Of a DNA stretch of 64,000 bases, positions 15,978 through 59,588 are shown piece after piece. The translations under genes were made by a program, and so were the position numbers. Each line of letters starts with the position of its first letter. The stretch's first letter is position 1. The notes beneath the pieces were generated by a model. It was not told the origin of the DNA and searched no databases. It saw only the letters and a program-made list of their open reading frames with translations. This DNA is from Candidatus Hydrogenedentota bacterium (GTDB lineage: Bacteria > UBA8481 > J006), in NCBI GenBank assembly GCA_003697085.1, contig RFFU01000074.1:82600-146599 (forward strand), written 5' to 3'.

Positions 15978-15987
15978 CAGGGCGGGC

Positions 15988-17736: not shown

Positions 17737-17996
17737 GCCGCGAGGGGCTGCCGCGGTGGGCGGGAAAGGAAGAGAAAGAAGCAGGCGATCCTTTTGGCGC
17801 GCGGTTGAGGCCTTCAAGGAATGAAAGGCCGCCGCGAAAACCTCTTCGACAATCTCGGGGGCGTTGACCCTGGGAGAATCCGAAAAAACGGCGGGACCCG
17901 AAAGACGGCGGGAACGTTCATTCCACGAAAGGTTGCGAATCGGGGAAGGGGAACGCAAATTCGGTTTTCGTTGCTTCCGGACGGCGGAACGGTTCT

Positions 17997-19253: not shown

Positions 19254-19477
19254 TTTTCTCCTGCGGGTCGATAAAGAATTTATTGATGTGGATAATACTA
19301 TGTCAAGAAAAAATAAACAATATCAAGGGTGACGCGGGTATTTGAACCACGACATATAGGTGGCTATTTTTTATAAGTAGCCGTCCACGTAAGTGTCATA
19401 GGTGAAGTCAAGCGGTGGAATCTGATTTGGAGCCATTGCTTTCTTTTCGGACCAGTACTTTCTTCTCAAAGAGACAA

Positions 19478-22400
19478 TCAACGGATCACCATCAATTTTT
19501 TGATCATTCGCTCACCCGAGTCTGTTTCGATAACGATGAGATACATTCCGGAGGCAAGGGGCCGGCCGTCGTCGGAGCGGACATCCCAGTGGAGTCGTCC
19601 TTCGGCGGAATTCTTCTCGATACGGCTCACAATTTTTCCCGCGAGGTTGTAAACCGTGATGCGAGCCTGAGAAGTGAGGTTATCGAAGAGGACTCCCGAG
19701 GCGGGATCGGAGGAAGACCACGGGCGTCCGGTTCGATCGTTGTTATCGAAAGGGATATACGGGTTCGGATAAACAACGACATTATCGAGAGAGCCGGCGG
19801 CGTTGGTGGCGGCGAGGACGGCGAAGAGTGTGAAGTGCCGGATGGTCGCCGTCACCGTGTTGTGAACGGGATCGACGATCGAGGAGTTCTCTTTGATCCA
19901 GAGGTTTGAGCCTTCGTCGAAGTGATAGATGGCCAAGGCTGCTTCGAGGATATTCGAATCGCCGACTTGATCGTTCTCCGGATCCGTATCGGGGTACGGC
20001 AATGTCAGAGTCAAGGTTTTTTGAAACGAGCGTGCCCCATCCTCGCGGATCAACTTTCGAACAACCGCTTGAACGGGAACCGAGAGAGAGGTTCCCAAAG
20101 GTGCGGTGTCGGGGATATCAGCGAGAGAGATCATCCGAATCCAAACGGTGTCCGCAACGGCCCCGGAAGGAAGAGAAAGTATCGACGGGCCGAAATTTTC
20201 GACGAGAAGAATCGTTGCGGAGGAATCAGGAAAAATCCTTTGGCGCGTGGCGGGTTCTCCGGCCGTGGTGAGAAATCCATCGACGACGGAATCAGCGTTG
20301 GAGATGGAGACGAGAAGGGGGGCGGGGTTGGTATCGACCGTTCCGAAGAGATCGGTTCCGACGGCGCGCAACTCGTAAAGGCCATCGGGGAGTGAAGAGA
20401 CATCCCAGAGAAAACTCCAGAAGGGTCCCGTGGTGTCAGGATTGCTATTGTCGGGCGAGGAAGCCTTTACCCAGGTTCCATTGATCGGTCGGTATTCGAA
20501 ACGCACTTTGGTGATCGTATCCGAGAAACCTGCGCTGACGGAAACCGCGTTGCCGGAGAGGGAATAGGGAGCGAGGCCGGTTTCGGAGATCGTAACGAGC
20601 GAGGGCGATGTATCGAGCACGGTAACCGTCATCGAAAAAGAGTCGGAGTTTCCTTGCGCGTCGCGGAGGATCACGGAAAGGGAGGAGGTTCCTCCGGAAA
20701 CGGTGGTGTCGGTGACGAAGGTGAGGATCCAGGTCGTATCGGAATTCTTCGCCAGCGGGGTCGAAGCCCCCCCGCCCAGTGGAGTGAGGTCGATCAGAAT
20801 TTCAAAGACGCCGGTGGAATCCGTGGCGGAGACGGAGAAGGAAAGGGTGTTTGTTTCGCTGTTGGAAATGGAATTGGGAGAGACACGGCTGTCGAGGAGC
20901 AGCGGAGGGGTTGTATCGACGGCGGAGACAACGAAGAAACCGAAAACAGCGCTCGTATTGCCCGCGTTGTCTTCCGTGATAATCTCCCAGAACCAGGTAT
21001 CGGGTCGAAGGCGAACGAAGGTATCGGGTTTCAGAAAAACAGTATCAGCGGTCAAGGGGAGAGAGAAGGAGAGTTCGGTATCGATGAGAAGCCTATAATG
21101 TTTCAATCCGGAACCGGAATCGGCGGAAGGCGTCCAATCGAGGAAAGCGGGGGCGACGACGGTGGTCCCGCCCGTGGGGGTGAGAGGTTCAGGGAGCAAC
21201 GGAGGAAGAATGTCGGTTAAGAATCGCGAATCGCCGGCGACCGTCGTATTCCCACTCGCATCCGTTGCAATCACGCGCCAGAAGAATGTGTCGTTTGCAC
21301 CAGCGATCACGGTGACGTTCGTTTCCGCCAAGGTTGTGTCGATGGCGAACGGCGCGAAGAGGTCGGTGTCAACCAAAAGCCGGTAGGAGACGGAGGAGGA
21401 GTCGACCGCCTCGCTCCAGCGAAAGGTTATCTGAAGTTCACGAGTCTCCGCACCGTCGGAGGGAGAAAGGAGCAAGAAGGGACCGGGGGGGGTTGTGTCC
21501 GGCGGAAGCACGACAACGAAGCTTTCCGGCCCCTTTGTGTCGGTGTTGCCGGCCCCGTCGGTTACGATGACTCTCCAGAAATAGGTATCGGCCGCGAGAA
21601 GAAGTGTGGTGTCGGGCAGGGACTGAAAACCATCAAGGAGCGTCGATAATGGAGAAAAGGTGCCGACGGTATCCAATTGGAAGTGGTAAGTGAGGGAGGA
21701 GGAGAAGGAATCCGAGGCGGCGGACCATGTGAAGTCAACCGGGGAGAGCACGGATTCCCCGTTGGCAGGAGATGTGAGGGAGAGACCGGAGGGCGGGAGG
21801 GTATCGATGAGGAAGTACGAATCCCCCGCGGGAGTCGTGTTTCCGTTGATGTCCGTGGCGATCACCCGCCAGAGGTAAGAATCATTGGGGGAGAGTGTGA
21901 TGGTGAGGAACGTATCGGCGACCTTTGAATCGACGGCGTACGGAAACGACATATCGGTGTAGACGAGAACCGAATAGGAGACGGAATTAGAATCGAACGC
22001 ATCCGTCCAGCGAAGCGGGATCGTCGTCGCCGAGGTTTCCGTGCCATTTGTTGGAGCCGTCAGGGTGAAGGAATCGGGAGGGACGAGGTCGGCGGTTCCC
22101 ACGACGACGAAACTTTCCATAGTGGAGGCCGAAGTGTTCCCGGCGTCATCCACTGTAATAATCCTCCAAAACCACGTGTCCAGGGAAAGGGCGACGGTGG
22201 AGTCGACGGAGGTCTGAAAGCCGTCGAGAAAAGGGGCGAAAAAAAGGCCTGTGGTGTCGACCTGGAGTCGGTAGCCGGCAAGACCGGATGGTGTATCCGA
22301 AACCGCCGTCCATTGGAGCGGGACGGGAGAAAGAACAGAGGTACCCGCCGTGGGGGAAAGGAGGAGGGAGGACGGAGGAGGGAGGGTGTCGATGATCAAC

Positions 22401-25400
22401 AGAGAGGTGGTTGTCGTTGTGGTATTTCCGACGTTGTCGGAAACGAGAATTCTCCAGAAGAAGGTGTCGTTGGCGGCGAAGGTGAGGGTTCCCGTGGTAT
22501 TCCTCCCCGTGCTGGAATCATCGAGAAGGGAGAGGAAGGTTCCGGCGGTGTCGGTTTGGATACGATATTCCCCGACTCCCGTCAGAGTGTCACTTACGGC
22601 ATTCCAGGAGAAAACGAGTGAACGGGAGGAAGTTTCGGTCGGGTTGGTGGGGGTGACCACGCCGGGAGCCGGAGGCGGCTCCGTATCAACGATGATTCGG
22701 GAATCTCCGGAGGGCGTGGTGTTCCCGGCGTCATCGGCGGCGATCACCCGCCAATACCAGGTATCCGCCGCGGGGAAGACGAGGATTCCGGTTGTCGAGG
22801 AAGAGGTGGAGGAGTCGATCAGGTCGAGCGTGAAGACCGTGTCCCGGGCGGCCTGAAGCCGGTAGGTTACGACGGAAGAGATACTGTCAGCCGCGGCCGA
22901 CCACGTGAAGGTTATCGACGCGGACCGGGTTTCGAATTGGTCCGCGGGCAGAAGCGGTTTGGGAGCCGTCGGCGGTCCCGTATCGACGGTGAAAGAATCG
23001 AATGGTATCGGCCCCCCTGCGATATTTCCGAGGGAATCCGCCGCTTGAACCCGCCAGTAATAGACACCCTGGGGCAGCGGAGAAGCAAGAAGCGTTTGCG
23101 TGTCGGGAGGAGTGGTCGTTTCGGAAGCGAGAATCGTCGAGAAGGAAGACGAATCGGAAACAAGCAAGAGGTAGAAGGCCGTTCCGATACCGCCGTCCGA
23201 AGCACGGGACCAGGAAAAGGTCGGAGTCCGCGGGGCCAAGGCACCGCCGATCGGCGAGAGAGGAAGGACGGTATCCGGAGGCAAGGTGTCGGCGCGGAGA
23301 AGAATGAGCACGGAGTCGGAAGTTCCGGAGGTGTCATAGGCCGTGGCGACGACGATGGTGTCGGTTTTGTGCCGGAATTTGATGTGAAAGACGGCGGTGA
23401 AGGGCGAGGAAGCATCGGTTTGAAGCGGCGAATCGAAGGCTTGGGAAAAAGTAACCGAATCGGGATTCGGGGAGGTAAAGTCCACGGTGACCGTGAGTGT
23501 TTGTGTTTCGTTGGAGTACCAGACCGTGTCCCTACCGGTTGTTGTATCGAAGGACACCGGGGGGGAGATGCGGAGCGGCGTGTCGGAGGAAACGGTGAGG
23601 CTTGTGATGACCGGCGTCTCGACGACCGTCGCGGTGCTGCTGCTGTCTCCGGTCCATCGGATGTCGTCGAGATAAATGACCGCAGAGGCGGACGGATTGA
23701 CAAAGCGAAAGGATTGGACGAGGTGTCCCCAATCCATCGTCCCGTCCCCCCCGGCTCCGGAATTGATGGTGAAATCGCTTTTTCGGATTTGGAATCGCGT
23801 CCAAGAATCGGCTGTCGTGACGGTGACAATTTTCTCGGCGATATCGCCGGCCCCGAAGGTTCCATCGATCGCGCCGATCGTGAAACTGACCCCCGCGACA
23901 TTGGAACGTGCGAGGAATGTAAAGGTGTCGAAGGGATTCGCGTTCAGTGGGAAATCCTGGTCCTCCATCCAAACAACACCGAACCCTCCCCCCCCTCCGG
24001 ATTTCGTGTAGGTGATCTTCAGAGACATGTCACCCTCGCCGGCGGGGATATCATCGGCGAGCCGATCGATGGAGATGGCGTCCCCTCCGCCCGCCGCATA
24101 AGAAATCGGAGACTGGTGGCCGTCCCCGTAACGATTTCCATAGAGGATGAGGTCCCCGATCGTCAGAACTTCCGTGGGAGCGTTGCTCAATCCGGGTGCG
24201 GAGGCATCGATCGATACGGACTCGAGCTCCGTGTCCCACAGGGTCGTATAGGCGACTCCGCTTTCAAAAATGGGGGTCGACGTCCCAAGATGGACCGAGT
24301 TCGGGGACTGGGTGCCGTGTTCCGTGATGGTGATCGTGACATTTCCGGAATAAGAACGGTCAATTCTATTAGACGCGTCCAAGGCCCAGACTGAGACGAG
24401 GATCGTCTCTCCCGCCGCGGCAAAGTCCCGCGCCATGAGACGAAGATGCGTCGCCGCTGTGAAAACGGCGTAGGAATCACGAAAGGAGGACGTTACCGAA
24501 CGAGGGAAACGATTCGTACCGCTCGCATCAATGCCCACCACCCCGAACCACTCTTCCTGCATCCCATTGTCGGTGTACTGAGTATTCGTCCAGGAAACCG
24601 TATTGTCATGCGTCGAATTGTTTCCGGCTTTCCACCACTCATCGAGAAATTCGAAGGCCGTATGGGCTACAAGAATTCCTCCCGCGGAATCCTCGGCAAG
24701 ATTGGCGAAGATCTCATCGAGTTGCGGGTCGATTTCCGCTTTCTGCATCGCTTGGTCTTCGGAGGCGCTTCCCGTGTTGTAGGCATCGGCGCCGTGTTCC
24801 GAAATCCAAAAGGGCTTCGAAGAAAGCCCCGGATACGTGACCCAAAGCGTCGAGAATCCTCCCCCACGATAAATGTTGCCGCCCCAAATGTCCAGGTTGG
24901 TCATAGAGGCGTCGTCCGAGCCGACCCCCGGATCGCCCAGGTTCGCAATGTCACCGTTCGCGGATGCGACCGGATGAAAGGAATCCTCCGCTTTCAACTC
25001 GCCCGCGGCTTCGTTCAAAAGAGAATACCAACAACTCAAGGGATAACCGTCGTAGTTCTCTTCGTTTCCGAAACTCCAAAAGAGAAGTGCGGGATGCCCC
25101 TTGTGCTGTCGCATCATATTTCGGAGATGTTTCTTGAGAGTGGAGCGTGTCGAAGCATCACAGAAATCGGAACCCGCCGGCGGCAAGTAGTTCATTATGA
25201 CATAAAGTCCGTACGCCGAAGCAGAATCCATTACCAAATCCCGCGTTACGGGATGATAGGTTCGGATAACATCGGCATTGAACGATTTCAGCAACGGGAA
25301 GTCCACGGTATGCGTCCGTGTTCCGTCTTCTTCCCACGCATATCCGCCTCCTTCTCCCACCGGTGTCGAAGAATAGGCGAAACCATGAGCCGTGTAGGGA

Positions 25401-25543
25401 AGACCCTCAACGAGTAATTGGCGGCCGGCCGTGCTGACTTTCGTCGGACCGGCGAGACCGCTCGTTGAGAAAAAAACGGCAAGATTGAAGGAAAGAAGGA
25501 ATCGGAAGAGATGACGACCCCGAAATGCGGTGGATAGAATCAC
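19478..25543 (-). CDS. giant secreted multidomain protein (2021 aa): signal peptide, N-terminal clan GH-A (GH2-type TIM-barrel) glycosidase domain, about 10 tandem FN3/Ig-like ~90-aa repeats, and a C-terminal T9SS (FlgD-Ig-type) sorting domain
   Basis: N-terminal signal peptide. LLFWSFGNEENY (acid/base NE) and WISEHGADAYNTGS (GH2-type nucleophile context). Repeated modules end in TW/FWRVIA.D.AGN.S......F.VDT.PP. The C-terminus VVYPNPYIPFDN...ARITVYNLAGKIVSRI...GMYLIVIETDSGERMIKKLMVIR matches T9SS type-A CTDs. Confidence 0.9.
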   Translation of the reverse strand: MILSTAFRGRHLFRFLLSFNLAVFFSTSGLAGPTKVSTAGRQLLVEGLPYTAHGFAYSSTPVGEGGGYAWEEDGTRTHTVDFPLLKSFNADVIRTYHPVTRDLVMDSASAYGLYVIMNYLPPAGSDFCDASTRSTLKKHLRNMMRQHKGHPALLFWSFGNEENYDGYPLSCWYSLLNEAAGELKAEDSFHPVASANGDIANLGDPGVGSDDASMTNLDIWGGNIYRGGGFSTLWVTYPGLSSKPFWISEHGADAYNTGSASEDQAMQKAEIDPQLDEIFANLAEDSAGGILVAHTAFEFLDEWWKAGNNSTHDNTVSWTNTQYTDNGMQEEWFGVVGIDASGTNRFPRSVTSSFRDSYAVFTAATHLRLMARDFAAAGETILVSVWALDASNRIDRSYSGNVTITITEHGTQSPNSVHLGTSTPIFESGVAYTTLWDTELESVSIDASAPGLSNAPTEVLTIGDLILYGNRYGDGHQSPISYAAGGGDAISIDRLADDIPAGEGDMSLKITYTKSGGGGGFGVVWMEDQDFPLNANPFDTFTFLARSNVAGVSFTIGAIDGTFGAGDIAEKIVTVTTADSWTRFQIRKSDFTINSGAGGDGTMDWGHLVQSFRFVNPSASAVIYLDDIRWTGDSSSTATVVETPVITSLTVSSDTPLRISPPVSFDTTTGRDTVWYSNETQTLTVTVDFTSPNPDSVTFSQAFDSPLQTDASSPFTAVFHIKFRHKTDTIVVATAYDTSGTSDSVLILLRADTLPPDTVLPLSPIGGALAPRTPTFSWSRASDGGIGTAFYLLLVSDSSSFSTILASETTTPPDTQTLLASPLPQGVYYWRVQAADSLGNIAGGPIPFDSFTVDTGPPTAPKPLLPADQFETRSASITFTWSAAADSISSVVTYRLQAARDTVFTLDLIDSSTSSSTTGILVFPAADTWYWRVIAADDAGNTTPSGDSRIIVDTEPPPAPGVVTPTNPTETSSRSLVFSWNAVSDTLTGVGEYRIQTDTAGTFLSLLDDSSTGRNTTGTLTFAANDTFFWRILVSDNVGNTTTTTTSLLIIDTLPPPSSLLLSPTAGTSVLSPVPLQWTAVSDTPSGLAGYRLQVDTTGLFFAPFLDGFQTSVDSTVALSLDTWFWRIITVDDAGNTSASTMESFVVVGTADLVPPDSFTLTAPTNGTETSATTIPLRWTDAFDSNSVSYSVLVYTDMSFPYAVDSKVADTFLTITLSPNDSYLWRVIATDINGNTTPAGDSYFLIDTLPPSGLSLTSPANGESVLSPVDFTWSAASDSFSSSLTYHFQLDTVGTFSPLSTLLDGFQSLPDTTLLLAADTYFWRVIVTDGAGNTDTKGPESFVVVLPPDTTPPGPFLLLSPSDGAETRELQITFRWSEAVDSSSVSYRLLVDTDLFAPFAIDTTLAETNVTVIAGANDTFFWRVIATDASGNTTVAGDSRFLTDILPPLLPEPLTPTGGTTVVAPAFLDWTPSADSGSGLKHYRLLIDTELSFSLPLTADTVFLKPDTFVRLRPDTWFWEIITEDNAGNTSAVFGFFVVSAVDTTPPLLLDSRVSPNSISNSETNTLSFSVSATDSTGVFEILIDLTPLGGGASTPLAKNSDTTWILTFVTDTTVSGGTSSLSVILRDAQGNSDSFSMTVTVLDTSPSLVTISETGLAPYSLSGNAVSVSAGFSDTITKVRFEYRPINGTWVKASSPDNSNPDTTGPFWSFLWDVSSLPDGLYELRAVGTDLFGTVDTNPAPLLVSISNADSVVDGFLTTAGEPATRQRIFPDSSATILLVENFGPSILSLPSGAVADTVWIRMISLADIPDTAPLGTSLSVPVQAVVRKLIREDGARSFQKTLTLTLPYPDTDPENDQVGDSNILEAALAIYHFDEGSNLWIKENSSIVDPVHNTVTATIRHFTLFAVLAATNAAGSLDNVVVYPNPYIPFDNNDRTGRPWSSSDPASGVLFDNLTSQARITVYNLAGKIVSRIEKNSAEGRLHWDVRSDDGRPLASGMYLIVIETDSGERMIKKLMVIR
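21000..23650 (-). repeat. array of about 9-10 FN3-like ~90-aa protein repeats inside the 2021-aa gene (approximate bounds)
   Basis: Recurrent D.W(Y/F)WRV.A.D..GN.S (and similar) blocks with PP-terminated linkers are read in the translation. Confidence 0.6.
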
Positions 25544-25728
25544 GGGCGGGTGAACAATCTCAGGCTAGCGGTGCAGAGGCGATTCGGAGGAGGGAAAGGA
25601 CGCCGTTGAAGGCGGAGAGTCCTTCCCGTCCTTTCGCCATTAATTCTTTCGTGGTGACGGGCGGTCTTCCTCATATTTTCCTTCTCATCACTCCCCGACG
25701 CGCCGGCCAGGAATTCCCTCGAAAGAGG

Positions 25729-25752
25729 CGTGATATTGAACGTGATATTGAA
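25729..25752. promoter_or_regulatory. perfect tandem direct repeat 2 x CGTGATATTGAA, about 190 bp upstream of the giant minus-strand gene and about 600 bp upstream of msrAB
   Basis: cgtgatattgaacgtgatattgaa is seen directly. It sits in an 800-bp divergent intergenic region. Confidence 0.3.
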
Positions 25753-26353
25753 AAATGACGACTCATCTTTTCTGTAACAGACATGGAATATTATAGCAAA
25801 GGCGGCGCACCTATGCAACCGCTTGCACAATCGGCGTCGGTTTTCTTGAATTTGGTGTCTTGTGCCCTGCGAGCTCATCGTTCTTCCCCTCACCCCCCCC
25901 CCCTCTTTCCTCCTCCCTCCAGGTGGCTCACTGTGTACCTGCGCATTTCCCCCTTACATCTTTCCCTATTCCCCGGAGGTCTGTTCACCACAAGAGTTCA
26001 CAGAGAGCACGAAAGGCAAGGAAGGAGAAGGGAGGCAGCTTTTTCTCAAAGAAGGCTTTTCACCCATCAGGTGAAAATAAGGGTGAACTTCCCGTCTACC
26101 CCGTCTTCGCGTCAAATCCCGCCTCATTTCCGCTTTTTCTTTATTTCTTCTCTGTTTTCTTCTCTTGTGATCTCTCGTGTACTCTCGTGGTGAAATCTTC
26201 TTCGGGGATTCAGGTCTCCCTCGTCTTGAAAACGGATGGCGAAAGTGGTATTATTGGTTCGAATGGATGGGGGGGCGCGAAGGAGAAAGGAAAAATTTCG
26301 AATACCGGGAAGAGGCGGGAAGATTTCACAGGGCCGGAAGAAAGGAAAGGGAG

Positions 26354-48438: not shown

Positions 48439-51400
48439 ATGATGTTAATCTTTTTATTTAAGATGGTGAAAAAGAGAAAAAGAGCAACACCTGCTTTTAT
48501 AAGTACCTGGTGTTGGCCGTGCGCCCTGGTGTCCTTTCTTCTCGGAAACTTGATTTTTGGTGTCGCGCCTCCGGCTCGTGCCGCGATAGAAGTCTTCAAT
48601 ATTACGCCGACGATTGTGAAGGCGGGAAGCGGGGCGCCGATAATTATTTCGGGGCAGAATTTTTCCTCGACAACGCCGGTGAAAATCGGTGACAAACCTG
48701 TGTCCCCGGTGGTGTATCTCAATTCGCATACGCTCAAGGTCTCGGTACCGACCTCGCTTGACTCAGGTGTCTATTCGATTACGGTGGGTTCGGGGGCGGA
48801 TTCCGCGACGCTCGTGAATCCGCGGCTCCACGTGCTTTCTTTCGCGGCGGAGGTGGCCTATATCGCCGGAGGGAACGACACCCTGGCTGTCGTCAACCTT
48901 GATGACGGCTCGATCATTACGACCGTGTCGATGCCGGGAATCCTTGGAGGTTCCAACCAGCTTCCTGTTGGAATGGCGGCCGCCCCGGACGGAAACAAGA
49001 TTTTTATCGCCTCCTTTGATGGGGCGTTTCCCAGAAAAATTTACGTGTTTTCGACCGTTTCGAATACTATTGTGGATGAGATTTCCGTCAGTGATCCGGT
49101 TCGGATCCGTATGTTTCCGGGGGGAGAAACATTGGCGGTCATCAGTAATGATCCACCGAATAATGTTCACTTCTTTCGGTTGTCGGATACGACGGAAGTG
49201 TACAGTGGCGGGAGCGTCAGCTGGAACGGCACCGATCTGGCGATGCATCCATCCGGAAAGTACTTTTATGCCATCTATTCAAGTGGAAGCTATATTTCTG
49301 TCATTGATGCCAGGGATGGAACGACGGTGGACAGCATCTCTGTTACTTACAGTGGTGTCGGACCGCATTTCTTGACGATCTCGCCGACGGGGGATTCTCT
49401 GTATGTCAGTTTTTCGGAACAGAATGCGTTCGCGGCGGTGGGGCTAACCGACACGGGGATGATTCGAGGAGACACCGCGGTGATTCCGAAGGCGACGGGG
49501 GTGATGAACAATGCCGTGATGGTAATGAATCTGGATGGAACAAAGCTCTTTTATGGCGGGAATCGGGTTGCGTCGTATGGGGTTACGAATCTAAAGACGG
49601 GAGTCGCGTCGACGATTACAGGAACTTGGAATAATACGAATGGATCTGCAAGGAGTTCCGATGGTCAATACATCTGGGCGACGAATTATTCGACGGAAAC
49701 ATTGAACAAGATTCGAATTTCGGATGATGTCGAGGAAAGTACGATAGACATCACGTCGGCAGGGGGGATCGGAGGGATGGGAATTCTTACGCTGCCGCGA
49801 GTGATTCCGATGAACGATTCGATGATACCGTATATTCAATCGGTATCGCTTTATGTTCCCGTAGGCGGCGAAGTGACGATCAACGGTTTTTTTGACAGTG
49901 CGTCACACTATGGTTTCACCTCCACGGATACGGTTTGGATTGGAGGAATTCCGGTGGAGACAATGACGGTTCTCGGCCAAACTCTGATCAAGGCGACGTT
50001 ACCGTCGTCGATCCCCGCTGATACAGTGGTGGATGTTCTGGTCAAGAATGTCGTTTCGGGCATGACGTCCGATTCTCTTGGGTTTCAACCTCAGGATACG
50101 GTGACGGTGACCGGGCCGGCGCCGACGATTACGGCGATCGTTCCTGACAGCGGTTATTCTGGGGCCGTTACGCCGGTGACCATCACGGGGACCAACTTTG
50201 ATCCGGTGTTGACAAAAGCCTATATTGAAGGAACGGAACTGGCGAACGTAACCTATGTGTCACCAACGCAACTTACAGCGGAGATTCCCAATGGACAAAG
50301 TCCAGGAGTGCACAACATCAGTGTGGCGAACTATCCGGTAAATGAACAGTGGGATACGCTGTGGAACGCCTTTACGGTCAATCAGACACAGATGGAAATT
50401 TCCGGAGCGCTTCCAAGAAATCCCGTGCTCAAAGGCGACTCCTTTTGGATGTGGATCTACGGTTCAGGTTTCGACACGTCCATGGTTCCGACGGTTACAC
50501 TCGGAGGGGTCGCGCTGAGTCGAGTCAAAGTCCCAAATACCAAGGTGATCACGGCTTTTTATGACGGTGTAACGCCGCTGGCTACGGGATGGAACAACGT
50601 GACCGTGAGTTATGGGGCGTTTCCAGATAGTCAGGCGCAGTTGGTTAATGCTGTCGAGGTTTTCGACAGCGGCGCACAGTACATTTATCTGCTTCCTTAC
50701 CTCGATGCTTCCTCCGATTCCCTGTATGTTGTCGATGTCGCCAAGAATGAAGTTGTCGACACCATAGAAGTAGGAAATGTCGGCTTTGATGGAGCGTTGG
50801 ACATTTCTCCGGACGGAGAATATTTGTTGGTTACGGCGTCCGATGGAAAGACCTTGAAGGTCGTTCGCTTGTCGGACAATACAATTGTTTCAACGAAAAC
50901 GTTTTCACAAGTTGTCACGTGCGGGGTCTTTTCGCAGGATGGTTCGGCTGTTTACGTAGGGTACGCTCCTGTTTCGGCTTCCGCCGCGATCAATAAATAT
51001 TCCTTTCCTGGTTTCTCCCTCTTGAAATCCTATCCGACGTCGGGGTCGGTTCTGGACTTTGTGGCAATCTCCCCGTTGGAAGATTATGCTGCTTATGGTC
51101 GGAAATGGGATCCCACGATGAAACTGATGGATTTATCCACGGGAGCCGAGACGATACTGGCGGGAACATATGTCAACGGTTCGGACCGGGATATTTATTT
51201 TTCTCCGGACGGATCGAAACTCTATGTTACCAGTGTTAACGGGGGAGCGACGACGGATTCGCTCGTCGTCGTCGATGTGGCGACAAACACCGTCCTTTAT
51301 GATACGCTTCTTCCTGTGTTGACGGGGGGACAGAACGGCGCCTACAGCCTCGTGTTTCATCCATCAGGCGACACCTACTTTGTGTCCTCTTTCGGCGGCT

Positions 51401-54400
51401 TTATAGCCTTCGATGCAGCGACAAACAGGTTGCTGGATTCCGCCGCCCTCGGTTCACAATCAGGTGGGATCGATATTCTTCCGGACGGAACACGCGTCTA
51501 CCAAGGGGTATCATCGTGGTCCGGATGGGATGGTTGGATTTACGCACCGGTGACCTATCCGGGGGGAAATGTTTCCTTGGGGACCCCCGTTCACACGGGA
51601 ATCCCGGGTGATATTCGTGTTATCCCCAGGGGGGTGAAATATGTCTTTCGCGGCTTGGTACCGCCGCATCTTACGATTGCTTCTCCGGACAGTGGAATAG
51701 AAAATGAAACGCAGACGATTACGTTATACGGAAGCGATTTTTCTCCTACACCGACAGTATATTTCGGGGGAGTGGTCTCTTCTTCCGTTACCTATGTAAG
51801 CTCGACGGAGTTGACGGTCGTAGCCCCCGCATTAACGGCAGGTACCTATGCTATTCGCATTGTCAATCCGGATCTGGGTGAAAGTACGAAAGACAGCGCG
51901 TACACTGTTTATCCCGCTGCGGCTTTCGTTCCGGACACGGCCTTTGGCAGTTTTTACAAGGATCCTTCCCTAAGGGATTCCGTAAGCCTCTTCGTGCCGG
52001 GTGATACGGTGTATTTTCAAGTGGGGGATACGAACCCCAATACGAATGCGGCGCGGCAGGAAACGTTGACGGTGGTGATCATCACGGCAGAAGGGGACAG
52101 CGCATCCCTCCTACTCTATGAGGATGGGGTCTCTTCGGAGACGTTTACCAGCGAAACCACACCTCTCTTTATCACGGACGATGCGGGGATCGGGGTGAAC
52201 GGGACGGACACCTACCTTTACGCAGTGTCTGGGGACACATTTTTTGTTATTTACTCGGATCCCCAGGACACCTCGGATACCTTCTTCTTGGTCGCGATGG
52301 TTCTTTCAGGGGCATCGGTCGGCGTTGTTTCTCTTGACAACGGTCAATACAGCCTCGATTCAACCGTAACGGCCACGGTAATCGACACCGACCAGAACAA
52401 GAACGCGGTACTGGCGGAGACGGTGACAGTTCGGTTGGTGTCGGAGGTCGGAAACGACACGGAATGGCTTATTTTGACGGAGACAGGGAACAACACCAAT
52501 GTTTTTGACAACAGTGGTGCTCCGGTTGCGCTTTCGGATACGACGGGGGCCGATTCGGGTTACGACGGAATTTTGAGGGTCGGGGGGGCGGACACGATCC
52601 ACCTTTTTTACGCGGATCAGTCCGGTAATATTGAAACTTCGGCGGTGACTGTCCCGCGGCAAACCGCTTCTTCGGTCGCATTTGCTTTATCGGAGTACCG
52701 TATTGACTCTTCCGTCACGGTTACGGTGACGGACCCGGACGAGAATCTGAATCCGACGGTAAAGGATCAAGTCCTGGTTTTCTTAACGGAGTTATCGACA
52801 GGTGATACGGAAACGGTGACGTTGACGGAGACGATGGACACGTCGGGAGTCTTTGTCTCGGTGGCAGGTGTCTTTCTTTCTGACACCTACGGGGCGGATT
52901 CGGGCCAGGACGGCGTTCTTCTCTGTGGAGATGCCGATTCGATTCAGGTTCTGTACTGGGATCGAAATTTTTCGGCTGCGGCAGACACGGCGGTGGATAC
53001 GACGAGTGTCTTTTTCAACTCCGGAGCGGGGACCGTGACGTTCATGGCTGTTAATGAGGAACTGGCTATAGGAAGCGAATCCATCGTTATTGTTGTATAT
53101 GATAGAGATGGGAACAAAAATCCGCGCCTCCAGGACAGTGTCTATGTTGAAGTAACCGTTGACGGGACAGCACGGGACACCGAACACCTTGTTCTTTACG
53201 AAACGGGAGATACGACGGCGACGTTTTCGGATTCGGTGGTCGGCTTGGTGTCGCCGCTGAAATCCCAAGAAAACGAAACAGGGACAGCCGACAACGGAAT
53301 CGTCGAGTGGTTGGTTGGAGATATTTTGCGTGTCACATATAGAGATTCCGACGGCGTCAGCCCAGCGGTTCAAGATACGGTTACAGGGGTTTCGTCGGCC
53401 TCGATCGGAAGTTTTTTTGGGATCAAGCTCGTGTACGAACTGGACTCCGCGGTCCTGATCGGTCTCTCGGATACGGATCAAAATCGGAATCTTTCCGCAT
53501 CCGAGACTGTCGAAGTTGTCGTCTTCGATGAGTCGTCGAATGATACCGAGATCGTTGTCCTGACAGAACGTGGAGTAGATTCCTGGTTGTTTGATAACAG
53601 CGGATCGTTGTTGAAATTATCAGACACCTCCGGCGGCGTAGTAGAGAATGATGGAATTCTTTTGGTAGGTGTGGGTGACACGATCCATTTCCGTTACCAG
53701 GATCAATCAGGTTTAATCGATACAACGACGACGACATTATCCCGGCAGACGCTTGCTTCGGTGTCCTTTTCGGTTTCGGAGTATCGAATTGATTCACGAG
53801 TGGTGGGAATAACCGTTTCGGATGCGGACGAGAATTTGTCCCCGCGCCGGAAAGATGTTGTAAAAGTTCTCCTGCGCAGCAATCTTTCCGGCGATACGGA
53901 ATATGTGCTTTTGGAAGAGACGACGGAGACGTCGGGTGTCTTTGTCGACACTGCCGGAGGCGTTCGTCTTTCCGACACGACGGGAAGGCTCTCTCCGTGG
54001 GACGGCGTGATTCTGGCGGGAGCGCCGGACAGCATCACCGTTACTTACGTTGATGAAAACAATGACGCCCTCGCGGACAGTGCCGTCGATAGTGTGACGG
54101 TTCTTTTTTATCCTGGTGCTGCGTCTGTAATCATTGATTCTTCCAACGGAGTCATTCAGACAGGTGCGGAATCTCTGGTGATTTTCGTCTTCGACAGGGA
54201 TCAAAATGCCGATCCGACGGTTCGGGACACGGTATTTGTTCTGGTGACGTTGGATACGCGTTATGCGGACACGGAATATCTTATTCTTCGCGAGACAGCA
54301 GAGACCTCCGGGATTTTCTCGGATTCCATTGCAGGGATCGTTAGGGCTCTGAGCACTGAGAATAATGCTGTTGGAACAGTAAACGACGGCGTTCTGCAGA

Positions 54401-57400
54401 CGATTCTTTTTGATACGATTGTAGTAATTTACAGCGATTCCGATGGAGTCAGTAGCGCTGCTTTTGCAACGATTCGGACGGTAGAACCGATTGTGGCCTC
54501 CCCGTCGTCGATCTCTTTTGGGCTTTCCGCCTATGCTTTGGATTCGTCCCTGACGGTGATTTTGATCGACACCGACCAAAACAGAACGCCGTTTGCTGTG
54601 GAAACCTCAGCAGTGGTTCTCATGGATACCGAAACAAACGATTCGCTTGTGTTGTACCTTACGGAAGCTAATGCCAATAATTCAACTTTCGCTGGAGGTG
54701 CCGTTGATCTTTCCGATACGCTTTCCGGCAGCGGCCGTTTGTTGGTGGGAATGCTCGATCAGGTGATCGTTCAGTATGACGACGGGGACGCGCCGGGCGC
54801 GGGTACAGACTCTTCAACGGCCGTAATGACGATTCTCTTTACAGCTTCAAACGGGGCACTGAACCTTGCAGCGGATACGGTTACACCGGGAGGTACGGGT
54901 CTTTTGGTGACGGTTGAAGATCGTGACAGAAATATGGATCCTGTTTCTCCTGATACGTTAGAGGTGACGTTGAGGACGGTCATACCTGCTCCGGACACAG
55001 AAGTTCTCATCCTAACAGAGACGACGGATACATCGGGGATGTTTACCGGGACGCAATACGTGTCGGATACCACGGGGGCAGGCGTTGGAGACGGGATCTT
55101 GTTAGGACGGGTCGGGGAAACAATCTGGATTCTGTATAGTGATACGAGAGAAGGGCAAACGGATAGCGCCGAGGCAACGGTTCTTATAGAACCTGTCGAG
55201 GAAAGTTCACGGACAGCATTTGATACGGCGGTTTATCTTCAAGATTCGTTCGCCACGGTATTCGTTACCGATGCGGACCAAGACATAGATCCATTTTCTC
55301 CTGACACCGTATTGATTACCTTGAGCAACGGAGTTTTAGGCGCGGAAACGGAAATAGTTGTTTTGACGGAGACAACGGATTCAAGCGGGATCTTTTCGGG
55401 AACGGCGGTTATTTCGTCGAATGTTCTCGATTCCGTTGCCGGAAACGGAAGGCTTTTTGCGGGAGTCGGGGATTCGATTGTGGCGTTTTATACTGATCCG
55501 ACGCGACAGAGTGATACATCGGTGGATACGGCCCTTGTGTTAGCCGTTCCAAGTGTTTCAACGGTGATTCTGGACGATTTGGGGTATGCTTGGGATTCCG
55601 CAGTGACCGTAACAGTGGTGGATACGGATCAGAATCGGAATCGTAATCTTCAAGAAACAGTGACCGTAATCGTATCCGACACAGAAACGAATGATAGTGT
55701 TGTTATTGTGTTGACCGAGTCGGGAGTTAACAGTTCGCTTTTCACGTCGTCGGCTTTGCGGCTTTCGGACACGGCGGGGGGGGAGAGCACGCTTTTGGCC
55801 GGGGCGGGAGATTTATTTAGTGTTGAGTATGAAGACAGGGATTTCCCCGGGATCGGAAATGATACTTCTTTTGGAATAGCCACGGTGCTTTTTATCCCGT
55901 CGTCCGGCACTTTGTCGCTTGCTTCAGACACTGTATCTCCGGGGGCGACCGTTGTGGTGACCGTTGCGGATGCTGATGAAAACATGGATCCTTTGGTCCG
56001 CGATACTCTTGAGGTCATTCTCGTAACCACTGTTCCGGGGGATGATACGGAAATCTTAGAATTGACTGAGACGACGGAGACCTCCGGGATCTTTGCCAAC
56101 GGAAACGGCCAGTGGGTGTCGGATACGACGGGAGCAGGGGTTGGGGACGGTATTCTCCTCGGGCGTATCGGATCGCAAATCCGGGTCGTGTATTCGGATA
56201 CGAGGAACGGCCAGAATGATCGTTCGGAAACAACGGTAACGATTGAAGTAGTGCGAAGTTCGGCGGTCCTGACGTTCGATTTGAGTAAATATACCCCGGA
56301 TACTCCCGTTCGGATCACTGTGACCGATTTCGATCAGAATTTGAATTCTTTTGCAACGGAAACGGTATTTGTGATTCTTGAAAATTTGAACGTGGCGTCG
56401 GAAACGGAAATTTATGAATTGAGAGAAACAACGGAATCGAGCGGAATCTTCCTTGGGACCGCCTCCCTTTCCGATACACCAACGGATTCGGGAGTTTATG
56501 GGGACGGCGTTTTGTATGCGGAACCGGGTCATTTGATTCGAGCGATGTATCAGGATTCCGTCGCGGCGAGCGATACGGCAGCGGAAACGGCCGCAGTGGT
56601 GTCACGGGTTCCCCCTACGGCCAGCACGATCCAGCTTGATAGTACCGACTATCGATTGACAGAGCGTTTTACGATAACGGTTACGGATCCGGATGAGAAT
56701 CAAAAAGGATGGGTTGTGGATCAGGTGACGGTGAGGGTGGTATCAAATGGACCTTTGGCGGATACGGAGACGTTTACTTTGACGGAACAGAGCCCCAATG
56801 CCGGGATATTTGTTTCGAATCCGATAGACCTTTCTGATACCAATACGACTGAGGGGGATGGTATCCTTGGAATAACGGTCGGGGCAACACTGACGGCGTC
56901 CTATGTTGATAAGGATGACGCGACGGATTCGGCCAGTGTTCAGGCCACAGCTGTAGCGGTGTTGACACATTCCATTTCAGAATTTGTGGATCAGGGGGGA
57001 GTCGCGAGATCATCCTTCATAATGGGAACGGACACGATTCAAATCCGGGTTGTCGATGCCAACCAGAATAAAAACTCCTTGGCGATCGAGACGATCAATC
57101 TCGGACCTGTTTTTACTTCCGCCTCCGGTGATGCAAATTCCGTGACGCTCACCGAAAGTGATTCCGCCAGTGGAATATTCTTATCGCAGGAATTTTCGAT
57201 GGATACGGGGGCCAATGCTGATAACGCCGTTGTGAGTGTCGACACCTCTTTGGAGCAGATCACATTTGTGTATACGGATCCTGATGATCCGGCCGATACT
57301 TCCATGATTTCGGCGCAGGTGGTGTTCGCTATCCCGCCGATAGCCGCTTTGAAGTTTGAAGCCGTTCCGGGAAATGGAGGGACCACGGTGATCAACATCT

Positions 57401-58419
57401 ATCCTTTGACTTCGGCTGGTGATACTTCTGTGAGTTATGATGGAGCGCAGGTGCTGGCGACGCAGAAAAATTTTGGGACGGCAACAGGAGGCCTGCTGGA
57501 TACGGGAGGTTTCATCTCAAATGGGAAGGTTGCAGTAGGGTATGACAAGATTGAAAATGCGCGCCTCTATCTCGCGATCACGATACAAGGAACGCTTTTT
57601 AATGGCGTCGTGAATCTTTCGGATCGACCGAATGGAAAGGTTGATTTTGTATCTCAAATGGAAACGGGGGGCGTATTCTTGGTTTTGAACGTGGACTCGC
57701 GCATTACAAGCGGGGTCGATTCCTTTTCCATCGTTGGAAATTCCGGGTTCAATGACTCGCAGTTAATATATATTCAAACGGGAGATACGCTTTTGGAGCA
57801 GATCCCGGGCCGGGTCTTACTGCGAAAGGTATCGGGTGGGGAAGTCCTTCCGGAATTTTCCGTATTGGCGATAAGAGATTCTGGAATTCAGATTCATGAA
57901 TTCTCAGATACCCCCTTGGTTGTTCGCATCTACTATCCGGATGCCGACAACGACGGATACGTCGATACCACGGCAGGAAAGGTTTTGGAAAAGAGTCTGC
58001 TGATGTACTCTATGGAGGAATCGGAGACGGGGGCTCGGCGTTGGACGCGCGTTGAAGGAGCGCGAGTGAATGCAGAGGAAAATTTCGTCGAGGCGACAGT
58101 ATATCATTTGACACTCTTTACTCTTGTAGGAGGAACGGCGACGAAGTCGCTGTCTTCATTCATCGTATATCCGAATCCGTTTCGTCCGAAATTGGGGCAC
58201 AAGAGTGTTATCTTCGATAATCTTCCTTCGGGGGCGACGGTGCAGATTTATACGATTTCCGGTGATTTGGTCGACGAAAAGGTGGTCCCTGCGGGGAGTA
58301 ATCGTTTGCAATGGGACGGACGCAACGCCTTCGGCCGACTCGTTGTTAGTGGGGTTTATATCTATCGGATCTCCACAACGAGTGAGAGTAAAGTAGGAAA
58401 GTTATTCGTGATTCGGTGA
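48439..58419 (+). CDS. giant secreted adhesin-like protein (3326 aa): signal peptide, IPT/TIG domains, YVTN-type beta-propeller repeats, about 15 tandem ~110-aa DxDxNxN repeats, a conserved pre-CTD module, and a T9SS (FlgD-Ig-type) C-terminal sorting domain
   Basis: The ORF is continuous. N-terminal signal and TM-like segment. IPT-like IEVFNITPTIVKAGSGAPIIISGQNFS and ITAIVPDSGYSGAVTPVTITGTNFD. YVTN-like repeats (AVVNLDDGSIITTV..., IYVFSTVSNTIVDEISV). The C-terminus IVYPNPFRPKLGHKSVIFDNLPSGATVQIYTISGDLV...GVYIYRISTTSESKVGKLFVIR matches T9SS type-A CTDs. Confidence 0.92.
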   Translation: MMLIFLFKMVKKRKRATPAFISTWCWPCALVSFLLGNLIFGVAPPARAAIEVFNITPTIVKAGSGAPIIISGQNFSSTTPVKIGDKPVSPVVYLNSHTLKVSVPTSLDSGVYSITVGSGADSATLVNPRLHVLSFAAEVAYIAGGNDTLAVVNLDDGSIITTVSMPGILGGSNQLPVGMAAAPDGNKIFIASFDGAFPRKIYVFSTVSNTIVDEISVSDPVRIRMFPGGETLAVISNDPPNNVHFFRLSDTTEVYSGGSVSWNGTDLAMHPSGKYFYAIYSSGSYISVIDARDGTTVDSISVTYSGVGPHFLTISPTGDSLYVSFSEQNAFAAVGLTDTGMIRGDTAVIPKATGVMNNAVMVMNLDGTKLFYGGNRVASYGVTNLKTGVASTITGTWNNTNGSARSSDGQYIWATNYSTETLNKIRISDDVEESTIDITSAGGIGGMGILTLPRVIPMNDSMIPYIQSVSLYVPVGGEVTINGFFDSASHYGFTSTDTVWIGGIPVETMTVLGQTLIKATLPSSIPADTVVDVLVKNVVSGMTSDSLGFQPQDTVTVTGPAPTITAIVPDSGYSGAVTPVTITGTNFDPVLTKAYIEGTELANVTYVSPTQLTAEIPNGQSPGVHNISVANYPVNEQWDTLWNAFTVNQTQMEISGALPRNPVLKGDSFWMWIYGSGFDTSMVPTVTLGGVALSRVKVPNTKVITAFYDGVTPLATGWNNVTVSYGAFPDSQAQLVNAVEVFDSGAQYIYLLPYLDASSDSLYVVDVAKNEVVDTIEVGNVGFDGALDISPDGEYLLVTASDGKTLKVVRLSDNTIVSTKTFSQVVTCGVFSQDGSAVYVGYAPVSASAAINKYSFPGFSLLKSYPTSGSVLDFVAISPLEDYAAYGRKWDPTMKLMDLSTGAETILAGTYVNGSDRDIYFSPDGSKLYVTSVNGGATTDSLVVVDVATNTVLYDTLLPVLTGGQNGAYSLVFHPSGDTYFVSSFGGFIAFDAATNRLLDSAALGSQSGGIDILPDGTRVYQGVSSWSGWDGWIYAPVTYPGGNVSLGTPVHTGIPGDIRVIPRGVKYVFRGLVPPHLTIASPDSGIENETQTITLYGSDFSPTPTVYFGGVVSSSVTYVSSTELTVVAPALTAGTYAIRIVNPDLGESTKDSAYTVYPAAAFVPDTAFGSFYKDPSLRDSVSLFVPGDTVYFQVGDTNPNTNAARQETLTVVIITAEGDSASLLLYEDGVSSETFTSETTPLFITDDAGIGVNGTDTYLYAVSGDTFFVIYSDPQDTSDTFFLVAMVLSGASVGVVSLDNGQYSLDSTVTATVIDTDQNKNAVLAETVTVRLVSEVGNDTEWLILTETGNNTNVFDNSGAPVALSDTTGADSGYDGILRVGGADTIHLFYADQSGNIETSAVTVPRQTASSVAFALSEYRIDSSVTVTVTDPDENLNPTVKDQVLVFLTELSTGDTETVTLTETMDTSGVFVSVAGVFLSDTYGADSGQDGVLLCGDADSIQVLYWDRNFSAAADTAVDTTSVFFNSGAGTVTFMAVNEELAIGSESIVIVVYDRDGNKNPRLQDSVYVEVTVDGTARDTEHLVLYETGDTTATFSDSVVGLVSPLKSQENETGTADNGIVEWLVGDILRVTYRDSDGVSPAVQDTVTGVSSASIGSFFGIKLVYELDSAVLIGLSDTDQNRNLSASETVEVVVFDESSNDTEIVVLTERGVDSWLFDNSGSLLKLSDTSGGVVENDGILLVGVGDTIHFRYQDQSGLIDTTTTTLSRQTLASVSFSVSEYRIDSRVVGITVSDADENLSPRRKDVVKVLLRSNLSGDTEYVLLEETTETSGVFVDTAGGVRLSDTTGRLSPWDGVILAGAPDSITVTYVDENNDALADSAVDSVTVLFYPGAASVIIDSSNGVIQTGAESLVIFVFDRDQNADPTVRDTVFVLVTLDTRYADTEYLILRETAETSGIFSDSIAGIVRALSTENNAVGTVNDGVLQTILFDTIVVIYSDSDGVSSAAFATIRTVEPIVASPSSISFGLSAYALDSSLTVILIDTDQNRTPFAVETSAVVLMDTETNDSLVLYLTEANANNSTFAGGAVDLSDTLSGSGRLLVGMLDQVIVQYDDGDAPGAGTDSSTAVMTILFTASNGALNLAADTVTPGGTGLLVTVEDRDRNMDPVSPDTLEVTLRTVIPAPDTEVLILTETTDTSGMFTGTQYVSDTTGAGVGDGILLGRVGETIWILYSDTREGQTDSAEATVLIEPVEESSRTAFDTAVYLQDSFATVFVTDADQDIDPFSPDTVLITLSNGVLGAETEIVVLTETTDSSGIFSGTAVISSNVLDSVAGNGRLFAGVGDSIVAFYTDPTRQSDTSVDTALVLAVPSVSTVILDDLGYAWDSAVTVTVVDTDQNRNRNLQETVTVIVSDTETNDSVVIVLTESGVNSSLFTSSALRLSDTAGGESTLLAGAGDLFSVEYEDRDFPGIGNDTSFGIATVLFIPSSGTLSLASDTVSPGATVVVTVADADENMDPLVRDTLEVILVTTVPGDDTEILELTETTETSGIFANGNGQWVSDTTGAGVGDGILLGRIGSQIRVVYSDTRNGQNDRSETTVTIEVVRSSAVLTFDLSKYTPDTPVRITVTDFDQNLNSFATETVFVILENLNVASETEIYELRETTESSGIFLGTASLSDTPTDSGVYGDGVLYAEPGHLIRAMYQDSVAASDTAAETAAVVSRVPPTASTIQLDSTDYRLTERFTITVTDPDENQKGWVVDQVTVRVVSNGPLADTETFTLTEQSPNAGIFVSNPIDLSDTNTTEGDGILGITVGATLTASYVDKDDATDSASVQATAVAVLTHSISEFVDQGGVARSSFIMGTDTIQIRVVDANQNKNSLAIETINLGPVFTSASGDANSVTLTESDSASGIFLSQEFSMDTGANADNAVVSVDTSLEQITFVYTDPDDPADTSMISAQVVFAIPPIAALKFEAVPGNGGTTVINIYPLTSAGDTSVSYDGAQVLATQKNFGTATGGLLDTGGFISNGKVAVGYDKIENARLYLAITIQGTLFNGVVNLSDRPNGKVDFVSQMETGGVFLVLNVDSRITSGVDSFSIVGNSGFNDSQLIYIQTGDTLLEQIPGRVLLRKVSGGEVLPEFSVLAIRDSGIQIHEFSDTPLVVRIYYPDADNDGYVDTTAGKVLEKSLLMYSMEESETGARRWTRVEGARVNAEENFVEATVYHLTLFTLVGGTATKSLSSFIVYPNPFRPKLGHKSVIFDNLPSGATVQIYTISGDLVDEKVVPAGSNRLQWDGRNAFGRLVVSGVYIYRISTTSESKVGKLFVIR
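51970..57300 (+). repeat. array of about 15 tandem ~110-aa protein repeats (approximate bounds) with the signature [VI]x[DT]xDxNxN...DTExxxLTETxxxSGxF...LSDTxG...DG[IV]L...GDxIxxxYxD
   Basis: The repeat units are read directly in the translation (e.g. IDSSVTVTVTDPDENLNPTVKDQVLVFLTELSTGDTETVTLTETMDTSGVFVSVAGVFLSDTYGADSGQDGVLLCGDADSIQVLYWD). Units are divergent at the DNA level. Confidence 0.7.
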
Positions 58420-59588
58420 TGGAGAACATGGCAACAAGAAACAAACGGATGCTGCTTTCGGCGTTATTATTCCTTTTGATGTTAATATCAGCGACGGGAG
58501 GAGCCGGCCCGGCGAAGGCCTTGACCCCCGATCCTCTGGCAGGGACATCCGGGGTTCAGTTTTTGAATTTCGGGCGCGGCCCGCAGATTATCGCGCTGGG
58601 AGAGAGCTACAATGCGCGTGTATTAGGAGCGGCCGGAATATTTGGGAATCCCGCGTCGATTAGTTTTGCTCAAGACGCTGAAATGATGTTCAGTTTTAAC
58701 CGAATGATAGCGGACATAAATCACAGTCTCTTTTCTTATGTCTCGCCGAATATGATCCATGATCGCTATTCTTTCGCCCTGGGCGCAATTTATACATCGT
58801 TCGGTCGTATTACTGCTCGGGATGCAACAGGGTTCGAACTGGGAAGGAAGCAAGCGTATTCGGCAGCGGTGTTGGCGACAATCTCCGCGAAGTATAATGA
58901 ACATTTTTCGGCGGCCGTTACGTTCAAGGGGATTGGAGAGAGGATCGCGGATGTATACGGGACGGGAATCGCTTTTGACGGAGGCATATATTTCCGGAAC
59001 GTGTTGATTCCGAATCTCGATTTCGGTGCATCGGTGCAAAACATCGGACCTGGTTTGACATTCGACAAAGAAAGCACGCCGTTAACACTGATTTACGGCG
59101 GGGGCTTTTCCTACCGGCCGCCGCGGATCCCGTTGCGCATTTCTCTGGATTTTCAAAAACCTCGCGATGAGAAAACCTCCGCCATGCTGGGGGCGGAGTG
59201 GGACGTGAGGAATCTTCTTTACCTTCGTGGTGGGTGGCGGGAGCGTAGTGGCGCGCGAAGCCATTTTTCGGCCGGAATGGGAATCAGGGTCAATAACGTG
59301 GTTCTGGATTATTCGTATGTCAGGTCGGAGTTTTTAGGCAATACACACAGCATTGCGCTCCGGTATGAGTTTTGGCCGAAGAAGCATTCAGGGGAATCCA
59401 AAAGATACCGTACGGTGGAAAAGGCGGGAAAATATGTGACCGTTGAAGAATCGCCTGGTTCGAGAAGTAATAACTCCGAAAAAACGGAAAAGTCGGTTTC
59501 GAAAAAGGAATCGACCGGAAATGAAAAAACGTCGGCACCGACGCCGCAAAAAACTCCCAGCGAGGGCGAGGATCTATTGGAATTCTGA
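58416..59588 (+). CDS. outer-membrane beta-barrel protein translationally coupled to the giant T9SS cargo gene (PorP/SprF- or PorV-like position); Lys/Glu/Ser-rich C-terminal tail
   Basis: The ATG at 58419 overlaps the upstream TGA stop (TGATG). N-terminal signal peptide LLSALLFLLMLISATGGAGPAKA. Alternating amphipathic beta-strand pattern. The barrel ends in the aromatic-terminal strand HSIALRYEF, followed by a ~70-aa low-complexity tail. Confidence 0.65.
   Translation: MMENMATRNKRMLLSALLFLLMLISATGGAGPAKALTPDPLAGTSGVQFLNFGRGPQIIALGESYNARVLGAAGIFGNPASISFAQDAEMMFSFNRMIADINHSLFSYVSPNMIHDRYSFALGAIYTSFGRITARDATGFELGRKQAYSAAVLATISAKYNEHFSAAVTFKGIGERIADVYGTGIAFDGGIYFRNVLIPNLDFGASVQNIGPGLTFDKESTPLTLIYGGGFSYRPPRIPLRISLDFQKPRDEKTSAMLGAEWDVRNLLYLRGGWRERSGARSHFSAGMGIRVNNVVLDYSYVRSEFLGNTHSIALRYEFWPKKHSGESKRYRTVEKAGKYVTVEESPGSRSNNSEKTEKSVSKKESTGNEKTSAPTPQKTPSEGEDLLEF

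Follow-up and report, generated by a model that had tools for sequence, protein, structure and literature searches.

The window, as we call the whole 64-kb stretch of Candidatus Hydrogenedentota DNA analysed here, carries on its minus strand a single uninterrupted open reading frame (ORF) at 19478-25543, which starts with GTG and comprises 2021 codons and a stop. It encodes a predicted secreted or surface-displayed glycosidase with an N-terminal catalytic barrel, a long stalk of immunoglobulin (Ig)-like modules and a C-terminal domain (CTD) of the type IX secretion system (T9SS) kind. The ORF list and the translation agree with the original prediction, which gave no strand, on a 2021-residue product, and the motifs quoted there are all located: WSFGNEENY at residues 156-164, ISEHGADAYNTGS at residues 247-259 and KKLMVIR at residues 2015-2021, directly before the stop codon. 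The gene is known to GenBank yet under-annotated. An exact-sequence look-up leads to RMH57027.1, a record named "T9SS C-terminal target domain-containing protein" that belongs to a metagenome-assembled genome (MAG) of Candidatus Hydrogenedentota, and the proteins of the window are deposited as RMH57010 to RMH57048, on a contig of 199,724 bp. From the N-terminus, the protein is divided as follows.

25448..25543, minus strand: predicted signal peptide, residues 1-32, with probable cleavage after GLA at about residue 31, judged from sequence features
24419..25447, minus strand: (β/α)8 catalytic barrel of glycoside hydrolase (GH) clan GH-A, residues 33-375
24134..24418, minus strand: β-module Ig-A, residues 376-470; weak Big_1 match (E = 0.11), with strands in a low-confidence model
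23594..24133, minus strand: all-β module X, residues 471-650; AlphaFold (AF2) predicted local distance difference test score (pLDDT) about 51
23279..23593, minus strand: β-module Ig-B, residues 651-755; all-β in a low-confidence model, no family match
20924..23278, minus strand: eight tandem fibronectin type III (FN3)-like repeats R1-R8, residues 756-1540, 96-101 residues each
20594..20923, minus strand: Big_13 bacterial Ig-like domain, residues 1541-1650; PF19077, 36.5 bits against a cutoff of 27
20264..20593, minus strand: Ig-like module, residues 1651-1760; weak, sub-threshold Big_7 match (E = 0.005)
19769..20263, minus strand: pre-CTD module, residues 1761-1925, its C-terminal ~90 residues common to a second giant protein of 3326 residues
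19481..19768, minus strand: T9SS type A CTD, FlgD-Ig-like, residues 1926-2021

The barrel starts at residue 33, straight after the signal peptide, and both a Pfam match and a structure model bear out the earlier proposal of a clan GH-A TIM barrel in this position. Pfam Glyco_hydro_2_C (PF02836) matches residues 80-268 with 28.4 bits against a cutoff of 21, a weak and partial match to profile positions 40-229 of 302. The AlphaFold model of residues 31-450 has a mean pLDDT of 86.7 and exceeds 90 over the barrel; the structure prediction that had been suggested as a check gives a confident barrel. The predicted acid/base is E161 in a GNE motif (codon 25061-25063) and the predicted nucleophile is E249 in SEHG (codon 24797-24799). 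Two further family motifs are DEWWK at residues 301-305 and EEWFG at residues 330-334. In an alignment of 55 sequences E161 is invariant, N160 and E249 are nearly invariant, and D301, E302, W303, W304, K305 and E331 vary little or not at all; the catalytic residues are also retained in both full-length orthologs, P0129 and P0130. E161 and E249 align with E132 and E224 of the GH157 laminarinase LaGH157, the clan GH-A pair on β4 (NE) and β7 (E), and the E224A mutant of LaGH157 has been crystallised with laminaritriose. By its fold, motifs and conservation, the barrel is a predicted clan GH-A retaining β-glycosidase.

The label "GH2-type" given to the enzyme earlier holds for the barrel fold and motifs but not for the family, since the N-terminal sugar-binding and Ig domains of GH2 are absent: a Pfam scan of the protein gives no match to GH2_N (PF02837) or the GH2 Ig domain (PF00703) at E ≤ 1. 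Whereas GH2 enzymes (β-glucuronidase, β-galacturonidase, LacZ) have a multi-domain layout with GH2_N and Ig domains, the present protein has neither and its barrel is N-terminal; a true GH2 enzyme encoded beside ortholog P0129 has all three GH2 domains. In terms of architecture, the barrel falls outside GH2. A homolog search returned 203 relatives, the best 42% identical, most of them 300-650 residues long and bearing precomputed Pfam labels GH2_C and/or GH72. When nine of these were rescanned with Pfam, the GH2_C and GH72 matches were weak and about equal, with GH5 in some, a pattern that fits a clan GH-A family which Pfam does not model separately. Counted exhaustively with HMMER, the family has 1108 clusters when the threshold is E ≤ 1e-10 and 223 when it is E ≤ 1e-30, with the barrel in many architectures; the figure of ~1100 clusters used below for a possible unclassified family refers to clusters at 50% identity. 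Current Pfam and NCBIfam models label this family merely as "GH2 TIM barrel".

The relation to families of solved structure is given below, where the E-values are those of the barrel-family profile against the PDB and the second figures are unlabelled values from a table of solved-structure comparisons.

GH157 (LaGH157, 9FZ9): 2e-25, covering the whole length and with it the DxWWK and EEWxG motifs; 31.8 (over 318 aligned residues)
GH158: GH158(Pro) 9ORO, 6e-30, β2-β7 only; 27.9. BuGH158 6PAL, 8e-21; 26.0
GH2 (β-glucuronidase; β-galacturonidase 6NCW): 3e-22; 29.9
GH5 mannanases: second figure only, about 26
GH72: Gel4 8PE1, 2e-17; 25.0. Gas2 2W61; 25.7

The GH157 laminarinase is the top structural match and the sole full-length profile match having the β8 motifs DxWWK and EEWxG. 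Identity of the barrel to GH157 (LaGH157 from Labilibaculum antarcticum, PDB 9FZ9/9G4N/9G5G, and BcellWH2_01931) is only ~18%, and the GH157 examples are Bacteroidota lipoproteins in SusC/D loci, whereas ours is a 2021-residue T9SS-CTD protein of Hydrogenedentota with no SusC/D nearby. Identity to GH158 (BuGH158 6PAL, GH158(Pro) 9ORO) is 17-21%, and the match omits the C-terminal third of the barrel that carries DEWWK and EEWFG. Of the four neighbouring families (GH157, GH158, GH2 and GH72), GH72 lies farthest away. Its fungal β-1,3-glucanosyltransferases (Gas2, Gel4) are eukaryotic, glycosylphosphatidylinositol-anchored and often equipped with a Cys-rich CBM43, unlike the present protein, which has no match to PF03198. 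The barrel family is uncharacterised and roughly equidistant from these four families, with GH157 structurally nearest.

Whole-protein comparison shows where conservation lies. The complete architecture recurs in two metagenomic proteins, P0129 (2021 residues, 50% identical) and P0130 (2035 residues, 49%). Identity to these orthologs is 57-59% in the barrel, 58-61% in Ig-A, on a par with the barrel, and 60-64% in module X, the best-conserved part of the protein; in the stalk it is 37-56%. A head at 57-64% above a stalk at 37-56% is consistent with a spacer that carries a functional head. Module X has no Pfam match, no PDB match by profile search and no relative in the metagenome scan; it may be a carbohydrate-binding module (CBM). 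The AlphaFold model of residues 376-760, which covers Ig-A, module X and Ig-B, was built on three sequences only and has a pLDDT of 51.

The stalk had been described as ~10 FN3 repeats. A motif scan, an alignment and phmmer instead agree on eight clear tandem copies, and a phmmer search with one repeat finds exactly eight (independent E-values 3.5e-6 to 8e-23). The repeats are about 98 residues long and 22-52% identical to one another, and each contains the motif [YWF][YWFL]W[RE][VI]. Two subtypes alternate in the alignment and the identity matrix, R4, R6 and R8 forming one and R5 and R7 the other. As to their type, the repeats are FN3-like E-set modules, but the Pfam fn3 model (PF00041) has no match in the protein; ortholog P0129 does reach fn3 at the whole-protein level with 46.3 bits. 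Here the repeats match Ig_Rha78A_N with 35.5 bits against a cutoff of 27.4, and SusE at a sub-threshold 23.4 against 25.2. Five or six further β-modules flank the repeats. The pre-CTD module, called Ig-like in the original prediction, has no match in Pfam or by PDB profile search.

Both ends of the protein carry predicted export signals. The N-terminus, MILSTAFRGRHLFRFLLSFNLAVFFSTSGLA|GP, has by eye a Sec-like n/h/c layout in which a positive n-region leads into a hydrophobic core of 17 residues and an A-x-A-like GLA|GP site, and probably represents a Sec signal peptide with the predicted cleavage position given above. At the extreme C-terminus the proposed T9SS sorting domain is recovered by two models, both above cutoff: TIGR04183 over residues 1952-2019 (35.5 bits against 23) and PF18962 (28.2-29.8 against 27). 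The homology of the final ~200 residues to the 3326-residue protein, also claimed earlier, amounts to 35% identity over 199 residues (E = 2e-25, BLASTP; seen also with phmmer), and phmmer finds these two proteins as the only CTD proteins among the window ORFs. The second protein and the gene behind it lie on the opposite strand.

48439..58419, plus strand: second CTD-bearing giant, 3326 residues, with TIG domains, a β-propeller, Kustd1514-type S-layer-like repeats and a T9SS CTD
58416..59588, plus strand: PorV/PorQ-family outer-membrane β-barrel gene, NCBIfam NF033709, 136.1 bits against a cutoff of 90

The PorV/PorQ-family gene directly follows the gene for the 3326-residue protein and overlaps its stop by 4 bases; the two look like a dedicated cargo and shuttle pair. 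NCBI taxonomy places Candidatus Hydrogenedentota within the FCB group, in which T9SS occurs. Within the barrel family, a PorV-family gene adjoins the barrel gene of P0013, P0018, P0004 and P0001, with NF033709 scores of 91, 83, 87 and 207 bits (cutoff 90); the neighbours encode PorV/PorQ-family proteins of ~300-320 residues (in the same order, L001:11569-12531, L091:9419-10333, L090:5751-6710 and L003:3098-4009). Many barrel homologs consist of only the barrel and a FlgD_ig-type CTD. Together, the PorV-family neighbours and the barrel-CTD homologs link the barrel family to a PorV-dependent route. The pairing of cargo with PorV is recurrent outside Bacteroidota, at four unrelated metagenomic or MAG loci, and the P0001 cluster includes an Elusimicrobiota protein.

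Like the T9SS cargo of Bacteroidota with type A CTDs (gingipains, Flavobacterium ChiA-type glycanases), the protein bears a probable Sec signal at its N-terminus and a TIGR04183 domain at its C-terminus, and is a large, predicted multi-domain hydrolase with a PorV-family gene nearby. It differs in its host phylum, in the core T9SS genes not seen in the window, and in that members of its barrel family are often paired with a PorV-family gene of their own. A check for T9SS genes, proposed with the original prediction, was answered in part within the window: the PorV/PorQ-family gene was found and no other T9SS component was. Significant glycoside-hydrolase matches and this T9SS-associated gene are both present; the lack of a family match for the barrel and of T9SS machinery was what had been named as refuting the prediction.

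Some indications of the substrate come from the neighbouring families and from homolog loci. GH157 and GH158 are endo-β-1,3-glucanases and GH72 enzymes are β-1,3-glucanosyltransferases. In Bacteroides cellulosilyticus, GH157 is a cell-surface endo-β-1,3-glucanase of the laminarinase type (PMC10229575). The locus of homolog P0021 (L087:1-12643) contains GH3, a TonB-dependent receptor (two calls), LacI, the barrel homolog, a hypothetical protein of 379 residues and an XgeA-like GH16, and has the layout of a β-glucan utilisation locus; homolog P0004 lies behind an ABC sugar-uptake operon. Since three of the four nearest characterised families are β-1,3-glucan-active and the P0021 locus joins LacI, TonB receptor, GH3 and GH16, β-1,3-glucan is the best guess, and the earlier statement that the substrate cannot be inferred was too pessimistic. 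The guess, unproven, is a tentative one and falls short of even odds: the substrate might be β-1,3-glucan of the laminarin or curdlan type, cleaved in endo mode as by GH157 and GH158. Unlike the exo-acting GH2 enzymes, the protein probably acts on polymers in endo fashion.

Gene neighbours are not conserved among the three ortholog loci. P0129 is flanked by the canonical GH2 gene and an ABC sugar transporter. Genes related to cyclic di-GMP (c-di-GMP) adjoin the gene in two of the three loci: in the window, an HD-GYP-type HD_5 gene (17997-19253, minus strand) lies downstream, and GGDEF and PilZ are found beside P0130 (L006:14753-16294). This proximity may be due to chance or may reflect a link to surface or biofilm regulation.

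Taken as a whole, these data are best explained by a secreted three-part enzyme in which one part serves export, one sets the geometry of a stalk and one is a β-glycosidase head, a reading to which we assign a probability of roughly 0.7. The core of the original prediction, a secreted or surface-displayed, predicted polysaccharide-active clan GH-A enzyme with a long FN3/Ig stalk and a T9SS sorting domain, is supported. The Sec signal peptide would direct the protein to the periplasm, where a Por-type (type IX) pathway that includes a PorV-family shuttle would recognise the type A CTD and move the protein through the outer membrane. By analogy with Bacteroidota, cleavage of the CTD would follow, after which the protein would either leave the cell or stay attached to its surface through the C-terminal end. 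In the attached case, a stalk of some tens of nanometres, built from the eight FN3-like repeats together with four to five further β-modules, would hold the N-terminal head (barrel, Ig-A and module X) away from the cell. The head would act as a retaining β-glycosidase in which E161 serves as the acid/base and E249 as the nucleophile.

Several observations weigh against parts of this reading. On the side of export, PorK/L/M/N, Sov/SprA and PorU were not found within the window in Pfam and NCBIfam scans of the ORFs, and a literature search gave no paper naming T9SS together with Hydrogenedentes in the library searched. Signal-peptide cleavage and surface anchoring are both putative. On the side of the head, the searches made here turned up no characterised enzyme of the barrel family, GH157 was not detected in a single-sequence PDB search, in which GH2 β-glucuronidases were best (4e-7), and module X was not identifiable as a CBM with Pfam, the AF2 model or a PDB profile search. 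As regards the substrate, no β-glucan-specific partner genes occur in the window, which instead contains the α-glucan enzymes GH13 with CBM48, GH77 and GH31, as well as DUF2961 and sugar transporters; the genomic contexts of barrel-family members are heterogeneous, and those other than the ones described above are uninformative.

The alternative that survives best keeps the same fold and export and changes the polymer to another β-linked glycan: β-mannan, β-1,4- or mixed-linkage glucan, β-galactan or an unknown exopolysaccharide of the microbial mat. We regard this as unlikely, though it deserves serious weight. The position of the GH157 laminarinase as top structural match and sole full-length profile match with DxWWK and EEWxG argues against it, as do the β-1,3-glucan activity of GH158 and GH72 and the homolog encoded beside GH16 and GH3. 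A role in remodelling the matrix is improbable. In that case, instead of harvesting nutrients, the protein would function under c-di-GMP-linked control as a transglycosylase of the GH72 kind, or as a hydrolase that resembles PslG/PelA and attacks exopolysaccharide made by the cell itself. The c-di-GMP genes would suit it, but the neighbours vary among the three orthologs, genes for polysaccharide synthesis are absent from the vicinity, the HD-GYP gene seems to have promoter-like sites of its own, and GH72 is the most distant of the neighbouring families.

Very improbable is a genuine GH2 exo-glycosidase of the β-galactosidase, β-glucuronidase or β-mannosidase type that has lost its N-terminal domains. 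Pfam GH2_C is the sole above-threshold catalytic model, the best single-sequence PDB matches are GH2 β-glucuronidases and also GH2 β-galactosidases, and the NCBIfam scan gives weak LacZ-type matches, all of which would suit such an origin; the layout of the protein and the full-length GH157 match set out above point elsewhere. A structural surface protein, adhesin or S-layer-like, with a catalytically dead barrel would account for the sheer length of the protein, its stalk of repeats and the C-terminus common to the S-layer-resembling 3326-residue protein, but hardly merits consideration given that both catalytic glutamates and all family-invariant residues are intact here and in the ~50%-identical orthologs and that conservation peaks in the head.

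Returning to the three-part enzyme, a wider proposal would make the barrel a representative of an unclassified GH family, sister to GH157/GH158, with ~1100 clusters, active on β-1,3-glucan and exported outside Bacteroidota (in Hydrogenedentota, Elusimicrobiota and others) by a T9SS-like route, often with a dedicated adjacent PorV/PorQ-family barrel; as a package this is speculative and we consider it rather doubtful. The protein does not overturn current understanding and is an ordinary example of the known type of T9SS-CTD multidomain glycosidase. It provides Candidatus Hydrogenedentota, an uncultured phylum that has received little study, with a well-delimited giant stalked glycosidase, here from the iron mat of a hot spring, and shows that this phylum makes use of sorting domains of the T9SS type and of PorV-family genes. 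The barrel family is a reasonable target for the discovery of β-1,3-glucanases, possibly thermotolerant given the source.

The extent of the gene is supported by independent data. A contig assembled independently by Logan from run SRR7905022 is identical at 99.98% of DNA positions over window 15388-26199, so that the long repeat-bearing gene is not an assembly artefact. The sample of this run is sediment from the source pool of the Jinata hot spring, Japan (PMC12501874; PMC10762115). No alternative start codon besides GTG occurs in the first 60 codons. An automatic call in another assembly (P0128) starts at residue 80. We rejected this start because the first barrel strands would be lost; family conservation begins at about residue 34. 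The long ORF is also favoured by the full-length orthologs P0129 and P0130, which likewise open with hydrophobic leaders and align from about residue 30.

Two ORFs close to the gene are probably spurious. The upstream ORF at 25540-25893 (minus strand, 117 residues) has no family match and an Arg-rich, nonsense-like composition. The ORF at 15949-18381 (minus strand, 810 residues) is likewise without a family match and overlaps better-supported genes called on the identical Logan contig, namely the HD_5 gene and a PHO4-type gene at 16618-17736 (plus strand).

Elsewhere in the window, two unusually long ABC-transporter permease genes lie at 35868-40854 on the plus strand. Both are fusions, one of SBP_bac_1 with BPD_transp_1 (887 residues) and the other of a GH42-like segment with a permease (772 residues), and near them are LacI, a DUF2961 (GH172-like) gene, a fucose-isomerase-like gene and an FGGY kinase. 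A FlgG-like gene of the flagellar rod/hook family is found at 11715-12560 on the plus strand, which places flagellar parts alongside T9SS-type cargo in a Hydrogenedentota genome.

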